64,000 nt of DNA, taken from the NCBI GenBank assembly GCA_002400495.2, contig NVQL02000076.1, positions 8,722-72,721 of the forward strand. Direction: 5' to 3'. This DNA comes from Alphaproteobacteria bacterium. Lineage in GTDB: Bacteria; Pseudomonadota; Alphaproteobacteria; Rhizobiales; OSC116. The notes below the pieces were generated by a model. The model was not told where the DNA came from. It did not search any database and worked only from the letters and a program-made list of their open reading frames with translations. Both the position numbers and the translations under genes were made by a program. This document shows positions 3,746 to 60,363 of this stretch, piece by piece; positions within the stretch are counted from its first letter, which is position 1; each line of letters starts with the position of its first letter.

Positions 3746-4228
3746 AATCAAAAAGGAAAAGGTGACGCCTTTGGCTAAACTTGAAGGAGATGTTTTTGTT
3801 AGGCCTCCTCATTTGAAGGGGCTTTGTCTCTTGTTTAGAATACAAGCCATGCATTATAATCTAAAATGTAAACATGTCCTGGTTCAAGGTGTAATTTAGA
3901 GTTTATTGTTCCAAATATTGGACACCATTCGCGAACTAAGGCAAAACATTTTTATTGGTTGAAAATCCATATGAAATGGAGAAGAATAAGTTTAATCAAA
4001 TTGGGTCTGATTAGGTCTTGAATATTCGGGTTTTAATTTATATAAGTAATTGATTTTGATAGGGAAAATGAATAGATCAAGCGGACTTTAAATAGCTGGT
4101 TTTAGCTGCTAAATTACGATCTTTTTTGCCCTTCACCCGCTCCAATTTTTCTGATTAATATTATTGAATCAATAATTTAGATTTTTTTGGCCCGAAAAAA
4201 AACTTTTTGAAATTGGCGCGGACCAAAA

Positions 4229-4557
4229 CTACCACTCGATTTTGCCCAAACTGGCCATCGTATCTGTCGATAATGACCACCTTTCTACCCCTTTGTATAG
4301 ACCTCAGAAGTCTTCGCTTGAGTGTGTCCATGGATGGCCATAATTTGGTATTGAGTACACCCTGCTTGGGCCAATAAATGACCTGCTGCTTTTCGGATTC
4401 CATGACTGGATAAATTGTAGAATCCAGCTTGATCACAGCACTTGCTAAATAGTTGTCCAAGAGCGTCGGATGTTCTATAAAATTTACCGTAAGCCGATAT
4501 AATGTAAGGCGATTCAGATTTTGCAGTTGCCCGAGTTGTATTGATCAATGAAAGCAA
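4229..4557 (-). pseudogene. Tyrosine recombinase/integrase C-terminal remnant, frameshifted
   Basis: SSHGIRKAAG...IMAIHGH...SEVYT carries the H-x-x-R, H and Y catalytic motifs. The N-terminus is absent. Restoring one G in AAGGGGTAG extends the frame to KGVERWSLSTDTMASLGKIEW*. Confidence 0.85.
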
Positions 4558-4903
4558 TATTAGTCCAATATGCTATGAAAAACTAATGGCTTAAGAAACA
4601 GGTCGTGTCCACTTTTATCAAACAAGTCCAAGTTGGCGAAAAGGGTATTATGCTGAGGTCTCATAACCAAATGAAATACCAAACTTGAGAGAAAAGATTA
4701 AGGCCAAAACAATACAAATGAAGGTTGCGATATCAAATTAATGCTGCATAATTAAACAATAGAGATCAACAAAACTCTGGCTTAATTCAAACAACTATTT
4801 GTCTCAATGCATTTGGAGACGGATGGGTGAATTTTTAGAGCTATGAGTATACCGGTGAAAAATATTTATGACCCTATTTGAGAAGAATTAATTGTAGGAG
4901 CGA

Positions 4904-5947: not shown

Positions 5948-6710
5948 TGAAACTCATACGTTTTCTGTTGTCGGAAATTTCAGCCCTTTTAGGCGCACTT
6001 CGCCTCGCTTATAGTCAAGCTCATATAAGTTGATTAAACTGATAATATAACATATTCATTAGATTTTCGTCATAAAGTTCTGTCTGTTCGTGAGAAGGAC
6101 GGGCTTGCAATTTCCGAGGTTGCTTTGCGTTTTTATATTGGTTTAGCCAATGTGACTTCGTGAATGGAACAAAATAAAAAACCCACATGAACGGAACCGT
6201 AAGTAATGAAGAGATGGTGGATTTTTTATTTTAATTGTAAAAAAACATGAAATTTAGATACAAAGGCCAGAATAATATTTCCGAATAATTACACAAACAG
6301 TCGATGAAATTTCCTAGTTAATTATATTTAGCTGTCCATCTTCGAATGCTTTGAGATAAATCGGTGATTGAACTAAGCTAGAGCTTGGACTTGCCTGATG
6401 AAAGAGGGCACAACTCGTTTCTTAACCCACTAATTTTTCATAGCGCATTGGGTTGGCATTGCTGCTTCCTGTTTTTTTGTTTCAATTCACTGAAAACCTG
6501 GTTTTCCAAGGAAGCTGCTTTCGAAGCACTTAATCCGCGATGATTAATTTTAACGTTGTAGAAGCTGTATTTCAGCATCTTGAGCGGAATAAACAAAGTA
6601 GATTTTATACAAATGAAAATATATATTGACAATTGTACGGTAATGATGAAAATTATAAATAATTTGTTAGGGTTATTTTTTACCAATATTGTAAATTAAG
6701 TGAAATTTAT

Positions 6711-57753: not shown

Positions 57754-58464
57754 ATGAAAGTAAAGTTTGAACTGAGTGCTATACAAGATGATCATGGCAA
57801 TAGCCGTCGATCGACTATGGGGTTTCGGGTTTTTGAAATTTTAAAGCAAGCGATTGTGCAAGTGCAATTGCGGCCTGGAAACCTGCTTAGCGAGGCAGAG
57901 GTTGCCAAACAGCTTGGTCTGTCACGCCAACCCGTGCGTGAAGCGTTTATAAAATTAGCCGATGTCGGGCTGGTGGAAATTCGCCCGCAACGCGGCACAT
58001 TTGTGGTGTTTATTTCGGAAGAAGAAGTGAGAAATGCGCGGTTTATTCGTGAGGCGATTGAAGTGGCAATTGTTAAGAAAGCCGCGATGGAGGCGACGGA
58101 TGAAGACATTGCTAATTTGAATGATTTGCTGTTAAAACAGCTTGAAGACGAAAAAACTGGCGATATGTCCGCCTTTTTAGCCCATGACGAAGAGTTTCAT
58201 TTGGCGATTGCTTCAACGGGTGGCTGCCAAAAGGCATGGAGTATTATTGAGAATTTGAAAGCGCAAATGGATAGAGTGCGTTATCTTTCGATGGGCAACC
58301 AAACGCCGATAAAAACGTTGATTGCGCAGCATGAGCTGATTGTGAAAGCCATTGCGGAGCGAGCGCCTGAGCGGGCTGAGGCGGCGATGCGGTTGCATTT
58401 GAGTGAGATTTTGAATTCATTGCCAGGAATTCGCGAAGCCAATGCTGAGCTTTTTGTTGACTAG
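57754..58464 (+). CDS. GntR/FCD-family regulator (hexuronate regulon)
   Basis: LSEAEVA...SRQPVREA...PQRGTFV HTH; DEEFH and QH FCD motifs. Confidence 0.92.
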   Translation: MKVKFELSAIQDDHGNSRRSTMGFRVFEILKQAIVQVQLRPGNLLSEAEVAKQLGLSRQPVREAFIKLADVGLVEIRPQRGTFVVFISEEEVRNARFIREAIEVAIVKKAAMEATDEDIANLNDLLLKQLEDEKTGDMSAFLAHDEEFHLAIASTGGCQKAWSIIENLKAQMDRVRYLSMGNQTPIKTLIAQHELIVKAIAERAPERAEAAMRLHLSEILNSLPGIREANAELFVD

Positions 58465-58470
58465 CAGCAA

Positions 58471-58945
58471 GCTCTGAGTTTCTATCTGCCCGTCCTATCC
58501 ACAACTCCCATTCATTTCCGTGAGTGCGTGTTCGGCCGTTCGCAGCCGCTGAAGACGAACGCGCGGCCAGCTAGTAAGCCCAACTTGTTTGGGATTACGC
58601 ACGCAAGTGCTAACAGAGAGCCTTAAGGCGAACGTGAAAATGCAAACTTCCAGAGCTTAGGCAGGAGATTGCCCAGTGATGGCTGAAAAGTTGTGATGTG
58701 GATGGTTTGTGCAGGAGTTTCGGCGACTGAACCTGCGTTTGCCACTGCAAAGACATAAGAAAGTTAGCAGTCCTGCCTGTACTCAGGTACTTCATTTATA
58801 CGTTCGCTTAAGCTCACTGTTGACACTTGCGTGCGTTCGCTGCGCTCTCTAGCCTGCCGCGCGTAGGCTGACTGGGGCTGCGAATGGCTACTGGACGCGC
58901 TCACCGAAATGCAGGGGTGATTGGGGATAGATAGTGACTCAGAGT
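58471..58945 (+). repeat. ~475-bp imperfect long inverted-repeat element (candidate structured RNA or non-autonomous mobile element)
   Basis: Arms 58471-58672 and 58767-58945 pair colinearly, e.g. CTCTGAGT/ACTCAGAG, GGCCGTTCGCAGCC/GGCTGCGAATGGCT, ACGCACGCAAGTG/CACTTGCGTGCGT, AGGCAGGA/TCCTGCCT. Confidence 0.85.
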
Positions 58946-60363
58946 TAGTTGCGTAACTCGATAAGCGCTTGCGTTACCTTGGTGATGAATTCATCATTTG
59001 TGCCGAGCGCGTCGAAAATGCTAGTGATGGACGCATAGGCTTTGACCATTGTTGCGGCATCAGGCTCTTGGCCGATGAGTTTGAATTGGTCGGCTAATGG
59101 GTCGCGGACGAATATCTCATTGCCTTGTAAGTCTGAGGCACTGGCATATTGCATCCAGCCTGCAACGCATTTGGCCAAGCTGTCATATGGGCGGTTGGCT
59201 TTGATGTTGGCGCGGATCGTGTCGAGAATCCGTTGTGGTAGCTTTTGTGAGCCGTCCATGGCGATTTGCCAGGTTAGGTGGTTGAGTGCTGGGTTTTTAA
59301 AGCGTTCGATGAGTTGGTCGCGATAGGCGGGTAAATCAACATTTGGTAAATCTAGGGTGGGGATGATTTCATTGGTCATCATATTGGTGATTAGGGTTTG
59401 GAATTTTGGTTGCGCCATAACTTCGGCGACGGTCTTATGACCTGCTAGATAGCCGAGATAGGCGATGGTCGAATGGCTGCCATTGAGCATGCGTAATTTC
59501 ATCAATTCATATGGTTCAACATTATCGACCAATTGTGCGCCGACTTTTTCATATGCGGGGCGGGTGTTGCAGAAATTATCTTCGATCACCCATTGGCTGA
59601 ACGGCTCGGCCATGACGGGCCATTTATCTTCATAGCCTATAGCTTGGCTGATTTGTGTGCGGTTGTCATCGGTGGTGGCGGGTACAATGCGGTCAACCAT
59701 AGTGCTTGGGAACGTCACCTTTGCCTCAATCCATTTGGCAAGATCGGCATCATATAATCTGGCATATTGCAAAATGACTTTTTGGGTGACTTTGCCATTC
59801 ATTGGCAGGTTATCGCAGGATAGGACGGTAAAGGGGGCAGTGCCATTTTTGCGCCTTATGCGCAAAGCTTCGACAATATAACCCGCTGCGGTTTTGGGCG
59901 CTGTGGGGTTGGTAAGGTCGGCAATGATGTCGGCATGGTTGGCATCTAAATTGCCCGTTGCGGGGTCATGACAATAGCCTTTTTCGGTGATGGTCAGTGA
60001 GACTATTTTTGTGGCCTCTGCGGTTAAGGCATCCAAAACGGCTTGCGGGTTTTCGGGTGCGGTGATGATGTTAAGCACACTGCCAATGATGCGATTGCTT
60101 TGACCGCTTGCATCATTGGTGGCAACGGTGAACAGATTGTCTTGTGGGTTTAATGCTTTGGTCGTTGTGTTGCTGCGTAACGACACGCCCAATATGCCCC
60201 ATTGTGGTTGTTCGGCAAGCAAGCTGTCAATATAAACAGCTTGGTGGGCGCGATGAAAAGCGCCGATACCCAAATGTACAATACCGACGCTGATTTTTGA
60301 GCGGTCATAATTGGGTGTCTGGGCATCAGCTTGCGTTAGATTTTTGGAGGTTAAACGCATCAT
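58945..60363 (-). CDS. uxuB: Mannitol dehydrogenase family, D-mannonate oxidoreductase (fructuronate reductase)
   Basis: HLGIGAFHRAHQA, TITEKGY, SCDN, MVDRIVP and KLRMLNGSH motifs; next to uxaC. Confidence 0.85.
   Translation of the reverse strand: MMRLTSKNLTQADAQTPNYDRSKISVGIVHLGIGAFHRAHQAVYIDSLLAEQPQWGILGVSLRSNTTTKALNPQDNLFTVATNDASGQSNRIIGSVLNIITAPENPQAVLDALTAEATKIVSLTITEKGYCHDPATGNLDANHADIIADLTNPTAPKTAAGYIVEALRIRRKNGTAPFTVLSCDNLPMNGKVTQKVILQYARLYDADLAKWIEAKVTFPSTMVDRIVPATTDDNRTQISQAIGYEDKWPVMAEPFSQWVIEDNFCNTRPAYEKVGAQLVDNVEPYELMKLRMLNGSHSTIAYLGYLAGHKTVAEVMAQPKFQTLITNMMTNEIIPTLDLPNVDLPAYRDQLIERFKNPALNHLTWQIAMDGSQKLPQRILDTIRANIKANRPYDSLAKCVAGWMQYASASDLQGNEIFVRDPLADQFKLIGQEPDAATMVKAYASITSIFDALGTNDEFITKVTQALIELRN

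Follow-up and report, generated by a model that had tools for sequence, protein, structure and literature searches.

What fills the spacer of a convergent pair of sugar-acid genes, and why the whole of that spacer folds back on itself, is the question raised by one locus in the 64,000-nt stretch of alphaproteobacterial DNA analysed here (the window). An earlier note, made from the sequence alone, had read it as an undescribed large structured RNA or as a non-autonomous palindromic mobile element of the REPIN or MITE kind. We hold with good confidence that positions 58465-58953 are a full-length copy of a genus-restricted, non-coding, interspersed repeat family whose members are palindromic over their whole length (foldback, MITE-like). 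The bounding genes, and the part of one of them which the element encodes, are the following.

57754..58464, + strand: GntR/FCD-family regulator gene (Pfam GntR 2.7e-17, FCD 1.3e-26)
58945..60363, - strand: mannitol-dehydrogenase-family gene, uxuB-like (Pfam Mannitol_dh 2.6e-54, Mannitol_dh_C 2.6e-60), convergent with the regulator gene
58945..58953, - strand: element-encoded end of the uxuB-like gene, its last two sense codons and stop (Arg-Asn-stop)

The spacer element proposed at 58471..58945 is real, its true limits being a little wider: a 489-nt imperfect palindrome runs from 58465 to 58953 and matches the family profile as a full-length member (nhmmer profile positions 2-491, score 500.9), its limits being fixed by the family termini and by an empty site in the congener G001. 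It is built from the parts listed here.

58465..58500, + strand: left terminal inverted repeat, from the alignment of 66 family ends, pairing with 58918-58953; it contains the 16-nt terminal motif (family consensus GCAAACTCAGAATTTC, window version CAGCAAGCTCTGAGTTTC), followed by TATCTGCCC
58465..58666, + strand: left arm, about 200 nt, with several local hairpin modules; the same arm unit occurs singly elsewhere in the genome
58574..58598, + strand: side hairpin GCCCAAC-TTGT-TTGGG, swappable, with no counterpart in the right arm
58667..58770, + strand: central non-palindromic core (…GAAAAGTTGTGA…TAAGAAAGTTAGC…), from alignments of full copies
58771..58953, + strand: right arm, the complement of the left one; aligned with each other, the two arms have 142 matches, with 9 mismatches of G-T type, 4 of A-C type and 24 transversions

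The nine colinear helices described earlier were found where they had been placed, their 94 paired positions comprising 88 Watson-Crick, 4 G-T, 0 A-C and 2 other pairs; the same arms were recovered by an independent repeat finder (I3, 58464-87/58929-52; I1, 58535-82/58841-88; I2, 58597-621/58812-36; I7, 58628-42/58793-807; I4, 58645-66/58771-92). When compared with shuffled controls, the + strand (58465-58950) has a predicted fold of -234.1 kcal/mol, where the 100 shuffles average -165.0 (z -11.7) and none of them folds as well, and the - strand one of -213.0 kcal/mol (z -10.3). The element is also, as had been remarked, the GC-richest spacer of the window (53.1% G+C versus 19.7-47.8% in the 24 other spacers, the whole window having 44.8%), and neither a credible ORF nor an adjacent transposase was found for this copy, in agreement with the earlier description. 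The side hairpin at 58574-98 is likewise real and behaves as a swappable module of the repeat family; indeed, at least three alternative tip modules occupy its place in other copies, and in this hairpin (helix 6) both sides have changed in 5 of 5 pairs. The apex helices CAGTG/CACTG and GCAGG/CCTGC, also part of that description, are present in the window copy and are not kept across copies, RNAalifold predicting neither; in the central core, the sequence is conserved between full copies and the local helices are not.

The search for other copies, which the earlier note had put forward as a check, returned 104 BLAST matches in the genome that carries the window, with 72-87% identity for near-full-length matches (>350 nt) and up to 93% for short pieces. 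With nhmmer, 214 hits in the same genome merge into 112 loci on 36 of the 122 contigs, amounting to 24,464 nt or 0.62% of the assembly: 17 full palindromes (466-548 nt), 45 loci with a terminus (mostly single arms of ~200 nt) and 50 inner fragments, with termini-only minis also among the forms of the family. Single arms of at least 150 nt number 40 in the genome, and the single-arm alignment took in 29 arms. The termini are conserved: in 56 of 66 ends GCAAACTC serves as the anchor, no more than 2 mismatches being present, and ...TTTCTATCTACCCC comes next; the 16-nt terminal motif is often in tandem, and is common to other sub-families. The copies are mosaic, hairpin modules having been replaced patchwise, and no two of them were near-identical by BLAST within the genome, so that there is no sign of recent transposition. 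The presence of more than 100 copies scattered over the genome, and of many more in relatives of the same genus, therefore points to selfish or formerly mobile DNA and not to a one-off RNA gene.

Nearly all copies stand on the downstream side of genes. Among 61 strong loci, 24 lie in convergent spacers, 30 in tandem ones and 2 in divergent ones (of the other 5, 4 are at contig edges and 1 is inside a doubtful ORF), as compared with a genomic background of 250 convergent, 1056 tandem and 245 divergent spacers; the family is thus strongly enriched at the 3' ends of genes and depleted from divergent, promoter-bearing spacers, and many copies start 0-5 nt from a stop codon. No consistent open frame runs through the copies: 12 of 26 copies have an ORF of 56-62 aa at one and the same position on the - strand, and among 20 aligned copies there are 7 whose frame is shifted by a 1-nt indel. 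A plasmid collection gave no match to the element. In metagenome contigs, depth over the element is ~100 times that of the flanks and contigs break at the element ends; an autonomous copy, sought in the metagenome contigs with the arm-core pattern, yielded 2 loci, both at contig ends.

How the window copy reached its place can be read from the congener G001, which supplies the empty site that the earlier note had asked for: there the element is missing, and the gntR-like and uxuB-like 3' ends overlap by ~15 nt (GTCGAC-TAG-TTCTTG). Where G001 has this single TAG, the window reads GTTGAC-TAG-[element]-TAA-CTCGAT. The stop codon TAG of the regulator gene (58462-58464) directly adjoins the element, and the ortholog of the regulator in G001 has the same ...LFVD-stop end; the uxuB-like protein ends in ...ALIELRN-stop in the window versus ...ALQELVDK-stop at the element-free G001 site. 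This comparison shows that the last uxuB codons were rewritten by the window copy, and the family can thus alter gene ends. The element, being non-autonomous, would have arrived by insertion into a TA(G) target, the two candidate copies of which are given below.

58462..58464, no strand assigned: left copy (TAG) of a possible 2-3 bp target duplication, suggestive, from one site
58954..58956, no strand assigned: right copy (TAA) of the possible target duplication; a Leu codon of uxuB on the - strand, corresponding by homology to CTA/TAG in the overlap region of G001

It had been stated earlier that there is no clear target duplication; for the window copy this calls for a qualification, in view of its TAG/TAA against the single TAG of G001. 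No general direct repeat accompanies the 17 full copies (several lack one altogether, both flanks of all 17 having been inspected). Across the family, 15 of the 56 ends have TA where the offset matches, control offsets giving about 3. In four metagenome DNA runs no contig joint skipped the whole window element, uncovered parts counting as no evidence; no RNA run was listed among those that contain it.

Among relatives, matches to the element occur in the same-genus genomes G001, G002, G004 and G005 (the four genomes whose matches were checked against the element) and also in G003, and no match was listed for any of 23 genomes from other families of the order; a degenerate pattern made of the right end of the core and the first right-arm bases retrieved 18 loci in 3 named MAG records, and the arm-core pattern 34 loci in 4 named MAG records, in addition to 1 chance-like hit. 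Four genomes of the genus are rich in copies, few or none being present in G001, G004, G006 and G007. The family is, in all probability, restricted to this genus. Within the genus, orthologous sites are polymorphic. At C67:12467 G000 and G005 carry a full copy, and G002 one with an internal deletion, of 136 nt in length; at C121:52946 the full copy of G000 corresponds to a termini-only form in G002; at C36:36833-37791 G001 has none, G005 a termini-only palindrome of ~90 nt, G002 and G003 an arm-centre-arm unit and G000 an arm-gene-arm unit. Most of the 'empty' sites in relatives are not clean, terminal remnants having been kept or unrelated DNA being present; two further loci were searched for clean ones in G001 and G006, where spacer identity of ~75% left the breakpoints unfixable. 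Orthologous arms are 69-89% identical versus 91-98% for their flanks, and the elements sit at synteny breaks and in variable gene slots.

The best reading of these data is that of an orphan, mosaic, intergenic family of MITE/foldback type. Bacterial MITEs, of which the Correia/NEMIS elements of Neisseria are an example, are similarly small, non-coding, multicopy and mostly intergenic, with terminal inverted repeats, and the likeness extends to insertion polymorphism, to internally deleted derivatives and to the possible TA/TAR target duplication at the window copy; at 489 nt and without a coding frame the window copy lies under the limit of about 600 bp, and the terminal inverted repeats are conserved and the copies dispersed and polymorphic. 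Unlike in MITEs, complementarity spans the whole 490 nt, the 200-nt arms are stacks of local hairpins that also occur alone, target duplication is not general, and the copies are mosaic and only 72-87% alike near full length; nor was a cognate autonomous IS with the same ends found in these incomplete MAGs (71-98% complete). The proposal of a non-autonomous palindromic mobile element is supported in its broad form, by the 112 loci, the conserved inverted termini and the polymorphic orthologous sites. The palindrome would then belong to a DNA element rather than to an RNA gene. Transcription of either convergent gene must run into the element, and hence the ~200-bp stem probably serves in passing as a two-way barrier or as a hairpin protecting 3' ends, as in REP/BIME sequences. 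BIMEs of enterobacteria and RIMEs of rhizobia are mosaic intergenic repeats; as commonly described, they share with this family the mosaic palindromic modules, the position after genes, especially convergent ones, and the likely passive role as a hairpin at the transcript 3' end, the present family being much larger, with defined inverted termini and a conserved asymmetric core.

The enzyme that might have mobilised the family was sought with six Pfam families, in MAGs that are 71-98% complete and in which IS copies often fail to assemble. The Y1_Tnp search (PF01797), positive in 6 of 14 control genomes, gave 0 matches in G000, G001, G002, G003, G004, G005 and G006, i.e., in 7 of the 8 genus genomes; within the genus, matches are found only in G007, a genome without a listed match to the element. 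With the exception of one broken IS110 match in G005, the four high-copy genomes yielded nothing for Y1_Tnp, DDE_3, IS110 or TnpB, and no RAYT, IS630, IS110 or TnpB gene was found in carrier genomes. DDE_Tnp_1 is present only as fragments, and rve genes occur in every genome whatever its copy number. No transposase family was represented among 74 ORFs beside 30 loci, and the terminal motif was not found within 5 kb of 11 rve, DDE or resolvase genes of G000, save for one chance-like hit with 3 mismatches. Two candidates were discarded: a resolvase lying between arms at C79:16037-17366, because homologs are missing from the high-copy G002 and G003; and a Tn7/Mu-like system, suggested by the tandem terminal motifs and by ~725-aa rve proteins, no motif being present near those genes. 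The lack of a cognate transposase among the finds, a possible target duplication known from one site, the absence of near-identical copies and the unclean state of most 'empty' sites speak against the MITE/foldback explanation.

The alternative that survives best, in our view an unlikely one, takes the ~200-nt arms as the working unit: ends with arrays of the 16-nt motif, recognised by a putative recombinase which would bracket and shuffle genes. On the same doubtful footing, the motif arrays would be recombination sites, and genes, including toxin-antitoxin pairs and a Thoeris-like ThsB/ThsA-Macro pair, might be captured, lost or exchanged between inverted arms; the 490-nt palindromes, the window copy among them, could then conceivably be the cargo-less form of an arm-gene-arm cassette. 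What gives this proposal its appeal is the arrangement of 13 neighbouring single-arm pairs within 3 kb, a small sample with crude ORF calls, where 8 pairs have inverted termini facing outward, none has them facing inward and 5 are direct. The eight outward-facing pairs bracket one or two non-transposase genes, with the central core replaced by other DNA; these genes are varied and often accessory (a resolvase, a Gp49-like toxin with its antidote, EamA, MFS, an AAA_33 kinase-like gene, ThsB_TIR with ThsA_Macro, DUF1203, and LysE with a methyltransferase). In its favour too, the AAA_33 gene, preceded by the terminal motif, lies between arms in G000 only at one orthologous site where G002 and G003 have arm-centre-arm; an arm-540 nt-arm unit occurs twice in G000 (74.5% identity over about 930-960 nt); and elements are found at breaks of synteny. 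Against it, no recombinase tracks the family, the sole resolvase between arms being the one already discarded, and at least one bracketed gene, DUF1203, is a syntenic resident without arms in G001 and G003, so that 'cargo' may be a misnomer. Mobile insertion cassettes (MICs) are described by Varani et al. (2011; PMC3129680) as IS ends around passenger genes without a transposase. The eight arm pairs resemble MICs in bracketing one or two non-transposase genes with their termini outward; they differ in that the DUF1203 gene is resident in species without arms, and any mobility of the arm-gene-arm units as wholes would be hypothetical.

Less probable still is that the copies are structured RNAs or cis-acting 3'-UTR elements kept for their fold, that is, domesticated REP-like terminators or mRNA stabilisers and not selfish DNA. 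Large structured non-coding RNAs such as OLE, GOLLD, ROOL and HEARO/omega RNA also measure several hundred nt and have highly stable predicted folds, and both strands of the window copy do fold very stably; moreover, paired cells make up 96.7% of the consensus structure derived from 20 copies, hairpin tips covary, and the bias towards gene 3' ends, with many starts close to stop codons, could be read in the same sense. Purifying selection that removes insertions from promoters and genes would give such a bias just as well, and compensatory pairs number 0 in helices 7-9, the long-range stems of the inner rod. The excess of G-U-compatible mismatches from which selection on the + strand had been deduced is real in the window copy, with its 9 G-T-type against 4 A-C-type arm mismatches (and 20 vs 7 G-U pairs in the minimum free energy folds of the + and - strands), and is not family-wide: over the family the arm mismatches are 197 G-T-type vs 184 A-C-type and, copy by copy, 12 favour the former, 13 the latter and 1 is equal (n=26), the + strand being the more stable in 12 of 26 copies only. 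The orientation of the element does not follow the flanking genes, and a search for Rfam families, suggested earlier, found no match within the window element (4227 models, E up to 1); at 18 other loci no element had an Rfam match at gathering thresholds, tmRNA elsewhere being the sole hits. The claim of a large RNA selected on the + strand is thus not supported by family strand bias, orientation, speed of divergence or Rfam match; orthologous copies diverge faster than their flanks and are freely lost or shortened between sister species, a rapid turnover that sets them apart from the large RNAs named above. A U-tract terminator was sought and 1 weak site was found in the element (58774-58789) vs 1.2 expected from shuffles, with none at the element ends; the promoter scan of the element gave 0 sites. 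Two observations do count against the main explanation: sequence is conserved in the central core and in several stems, and compensatory variants in the hairpin modules could reflect selection for structure.

It is highly improbable that the family is of the REPIN type and owes its spread to a REP-associated tyrosine transposase (RAYT). According to Bertels and Rainey (2011; PMC3116915), REPs and REPINs are extragenic sequences occurring as singlets, as inverted doublets able to form hairpins in ssDNA or mRNA, and as clusters; to that extent the family, with 17 doublets and 40 singlets, is alike in organisation, in clustering and in long vertical persistence. The unit of ~200 nt, with doublets of ~490 nt, is far longer than a REP as generally understood, no RAYT accompanies it in carrier genomes, and the absence of Y1_Tnp from 7 of the 8 genus genomes, the four high-copy ones among them, removes the REPIN part of the earlier proposal. 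Finally, the element might be a local inverted duplication, neutral and decayed, that exists in this spacer alone. Nothing more than the palindrome itself can be adduced for this reading, which is refuted by the 112 related loci and by the empty site in the congener, and its probability is negligible.

The lead of a 'giant structured RNA' is thereby removed, the locus being a repeat copy whose strand-specific G-U signal vanishes family-wide. No description of the family was met with in the literature on OCS116 repeats or on palindromic and mosaic intergenic elements of alphaproteobacteria, and it appears to be undescribed so far, this search being no proof that it is unpublished. In the genome of this uncultured marine alphaproteobacterial genus, of which it makes up 0.62%, the family breaks metagenome assemblies and marks synteny breakpoints and variable gene slots; because of its long structured arms with tandem terminal motifs, its outward-facing arms that bracket genes, and the fact that no transposase was found, it may serve as a model for how palindromic repeats persist in small genomes and reshape them.

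The spacer between gntR and uxuB is an imperfect palindrome along its entire length, and the repeat copy that fills it lies among the following features:

57754-58464, plus strand: GntR/FCD regulator gene (gntR), left flank of the spacer
58465-58953: the element, 489 nt, with left arm 58465-58666 and right arm 58771-58953
58945-60363, minus strand: mannitol-dehydrogenase-family gene (uxuB), right flank of the spacer

All nine helices that had been proposed from the sequence in an earlier note were found, their 94 paired positions comprising 88 Watson-Crick, 4 G-T, no A-C and 2 other pairs, and the same arms were recovered by a repeat finder. Both strands, folded as RNA, are far stabler than shuffled controls (plus strand -234.1 kcal/mol, z -11.7, with 0 of 100 shuffles equally good; minus strand -213.0 kcal/mol, z -10.3); the GC-richness remarked upon is also real, the 53.1% G+C of this spacer being the highest among the window's 25 spacers (others 19.7-47.8%). 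The palindrome is real and striking, but its meaning is ordinary: the spacer holds a copy of an intergenic repeat that is large, mosaic, non-autonomous and foldback/MITE-like. Elsewhere in the window, 3746-4903 and 5948-6710 (1158 and 763 nt, 36% and 34% G+C) are unusually long and hold no ORF of at least 100 aa by a crude call.

The existence of other genomic copies, which the earlier note had left to BLASTN, is clear in the genome carrying the window (G000; 3.96 Mb, 122 contigs, 91.6% complete): BLAST of the element returned 104 matches, the near-full-length ones (>350 nt) being 72-87% identical, while a profile made from 14 full copies gave 214 hits, merged into 112 loci over 36 contigs.

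Classes of loci found by the profile search
Full-length palindromes: 17 loci, 466-548 nt
Terminus-bearing pieces: 45 loci, mostly single arms of ~200 nt
Inner fragments: 50 loci

With 24,464 nt in total, the family makes up 0.62% of the assembly, and the window holds one copy only, 58465-58953. In four metagenome runs contig depth was ~100x as high over the element as over the genes beside it, and contigs ended at the element ends, as is expected of a high-copy repeat.

Each end carries a conserved terminus, with consensus GCAAACTCAGAATTTC followed by TATCTACCCCTCGTTTCC, which anchors 56 of 66 ends; its motif often occurs two or three times in tandem, immediately outside or inside the element end, and recurs in at least two other sub-families whose interiors differ. 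Short local hairpins are stacked along each ~200-nt arm, and alternative "alleles" exist for several of them (GCAC-GCAA-GTGC or GCCC-GCAA-GGGC; GAGCC-TTAA-GGC or GAGGC-TTAA-GCC). The side hairpin described at 58574-98 is present, with three different tips across the family, whereas the apex helices, seen in the window copy, are not retained in the family. Two full copies share an identical extra 23-nt module at mirrored positions of both arms; the ~100-nt core between the arms is non-palindromic, yet sequence-conserved. At least one further sub-family in G000 combines the 16-nt terminal motif with a different interior (…GTAGCCTTGTGCTTATCGTGGGAAAAGGGTCC…), for example at contig positions C16:10194, C16:14495, C21:6291, C31:12519, C72:11325 and C118:54881; its other end bears three tandem motif-like units that end in …CTCCAGCTCACTAAGCATAATGCGG, and some single arms are joined to a partner with this interior in place of the second arm.

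Among relatives, in which empty sites had been thought worth seeking, the same-genus genome G001 holds the same two genes adjoining (78% and 74% DNA identity) without the element; there they overlap (GAATTATTTGTCGACTAGTTCTTG), the uxuB stop lying inside the gntR end. In the window the gntR end is unchanged (...GTTGAC-TAG) and is followed by the 489 nt of the element, to the right of which stands TAA-CTCGAT, the TAA being a uxuB Leu codon and the counterpart of TAG/CTA in G001; the uxuB C-terminus reads ...ELRN against ...ELVDK in G001, its last two residues and stop coming from the element terminus. To judge from this comparison, the window copy was inserted where two convergent genes overlapped at their ends. 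The statement that there is no clear target duplication needs a caveat, since a trinucleotide that the empty site has once stands on both sides of the window copy, as would follow from a target duplication of 2-3 bp (TA or TAR). Several full copies lack any direct repeat at their flanks. Across the family, TA stands at the matching offset of 15 of 56 ends, against ~3 at control offsets; for the window copy, a single case, a target duplication is suggestive only.

By crude ORF calls (>=120 aa), 24 of the 61 strong loci lie in convergent, 30 in tandem and 2 in divergent spacers, the background on the same contigs being 250, 1056 and 245 spacers respectively; of the other five loci, four are at contig edges and one falls in a doubtful 128-aa ORF. 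Many copies begin a few bases from a stop codon; the neighbours are ordinary housekeeping genes (leuB-like, queF, thyA/folA, dnaJ, recR and sdhCD, for example), and no transposase was found among 74 ORFs scanned at 30 loci. REP, BIME and many MITE families show the same 3'-end bias; it is consistent with insertions tolerated only where genes and promoters are spared, and likewise with a secondary function as a hairpin at transcript ends.

Comparison of orthologous sites with other same-genus genomes shows turnover, not conservation. At C67:12467 G000 and G005 have a full-length copy, and G002 has a 136-nt form with an internal deletion; at C121:52946, with flanks 91-93% identical, the copy is full-length in G000 and a termini-only mini-palindrome in G002; in the slot C36:36833-37791 (loci L135 and L137-L140) the same two genes flank four different states across sister species.

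States of the slot C36:36833-37791
G001: 94-nt spacer, no element
G005: ~90-nt termini-only palindrome
G002, G003: arm-centre-arm
G000: arm, extra terminal motif, AAA_33 gene, arm

Copies kept in both G000 and G002 have arms only 69-89% identical, whereas the adjoining genes and even non-coding DNA are 91-98% identical, and the arm differences are block replacements of hairpin modules; this faster divergence by blocks points to patchy gene conversion among copies rather than purifying selection on RNA.

The synteny of G000 with G001 and G002 breaks exactly at the repeat copies C67:3231-3451 and C67:15324-15854 (locus L071), which suggests that dispersed copies recombined or that the relatives' assemblies are broken there. 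A variable slot at C121:63946-64898 (L084), with flanks ~90-94% identical, holds a single arm and a 196-aa ORF in G000 and an unrelated 143-aa ORF in G002; a 666-nt G000 segment unrelated to the repeat (C67:17944-18610, L071) is cleanly missing from G002, the aligned blocks overlapping by ~7 nt at the junction.

As regards the type of mobile element, the suggestion of a palindromic, REPIN/MITE-like one stands in that the family is multicopy, non-autonomous and MITE-like with an empty site in G001; membership of the REPIN/RAYT class fails, since Y1_Tnp/RAYT has no match in G000-G006. DDE_3 (IS630) and the TnpB zinc-ribbon domain are likewise unmatched in these genomes, and all three are present in G007, which has no element match listed. 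IS110 occurs in G007, its only other match (G005) being broken by a stop codon, and DDE_Tnp_1 occurs as fragments only, in G000 and G002. Genes with rve are found in eight of eight genomes, and within 5 kb of those of G000 there is no terminal motif save one chance-like hit with 3 mismatches. A resolvase gene between two arms (C79:16037-17366) was rejected as mobiliser, since G002 and G003, both high-copy genomes, lack a homolog of it. With no candidate enzyme found in the carriers, the family is an orphan for now, in draft MAGs where IS copies are often missing; MITE membership is incomplete, with a partner IS lacking and target duplication unproven.

Thirteen pairs of single arms lie within 3 kb of each other, eight inverted with termini outward, none with termini inward and five direct. 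Between arms are found genes for a resolvase, a Gp49-like toxin with its antidote, MFS, EamA, AAA_33, ThsB_TIR with ThsA_Macro, DUF1203, and LysE with a methyltransferase. Arms bracketing varied genes resemble mobile insertion cassettes, and an arm-540 nt-arm unit is present twice (74.5% identity); against this likeness counts the DUF1203 gene, a syntenic resident of G001 and G003 without arms, and a cassette-like recombination system behind the bracketed genes seems quite improbable. The Thoeris-like pair, outside the window near a contig end (C79:33780-35750; L023, L030), consists of ThsB_TIR (3.6e-21) and then a ThsA_Macro-domain protein (1.8e-27) between outward-facing arms. Toxin-antitoxin genes directly beside single arms (C67:2244-3151, C67:25237-25662, C79:316-1126) are RES paired with an Xre-type antitoxin, a gene of PIN/VapC-like type, and a Gp49-like gene together with its antidote.

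The reading of a large structured RNA under plus-strand selection, like the mismatch argument behind it, is not upheld by family-wide tests. The G-U excess exists in the window copy (9 G-T-type against 4 A-C-type mismatches), but in the family the arms hold 197 against 184, and of 26 copies 12 have more of the G-T type, 13 more of the A-C type and one the same number of each. The plus strand is the more stable in 12 of 26; full copies between tandem genes lie with the genes in three of nine cases and against them in six, and those between convergent genes (n=7) split 3 and 4. RNAalifold on 20 of the 26 full copies (six with a different left arm omitted) gave a consensus of 80 pairs, in which 96.7% of cells are paired; pairs that changed on both sides cluster in the side hairpin, a swappable module (5 of 5 pairs), and in the three inner long-range helices no pair of this alignment changed on both sides. 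Since compensatory change can also arise in a DNA palindrome, via template switching or arm-to-arm conversion, it is not an argument for RNA. Rfam gave no match in the element at E up to 1, nor in the elements of 18 other loci at gathering thresholds; scans of the element gave no promoter-like site and a single weak terminator-like one, with 1.2 expected. In 12 of 26 copies an ORF of 56-62 aa occupies the same place on the minus strand, its frame being shifted by a 1-nt indel in 7 of the 20 copies aligned. Some 1.3 kb from a full repeat copy, and cut by the locus edge, lies an alphaproteobacterial tmRNA gene of the two-piece (permuted) type (L005:1-138; C31:41156-41293; Rfam RF01849, 102.8 bits).

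The relatives search gave element matches in the same-genus genomes G001, G002, G004 and G005, a separate search gave them in G003, and none is listed in 23 genomes of other families of the order; in G007 and G013 only uxuB matched, with no element match listed. G002, G003 and G005 gave many matches, and G001 and G006 gave few, though match numbers are not copy numbers; G004 has a few short fragments only. A degenerate pattern of core and adjacent right arm was found at 18 loci in three named MAG records (13 in Hyphomicrobiales bacterium NORP94, 4 in OCS116 cluster bacterium NORP83, 1 in Rhizobiaceae bacterium NORP335); a 19-nt arm string was found at 34 loci in four, 15 of them in Hyphomicrobiales bacterium DT_99, and once, chance-like, in a Muribaculaceae MAG. 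No description of the family was found in the literature on OCS116 repeats or on alphaproteobacterial palindromic intergenic mosaic elements, and as far as these searches show it is previously undescribed. On these matches the family is limited to a single genus of marine alphaproteobacteria, which are uncultured. The element behaves like REP/BIME/MITE-type elements and is best placed in that general kind.
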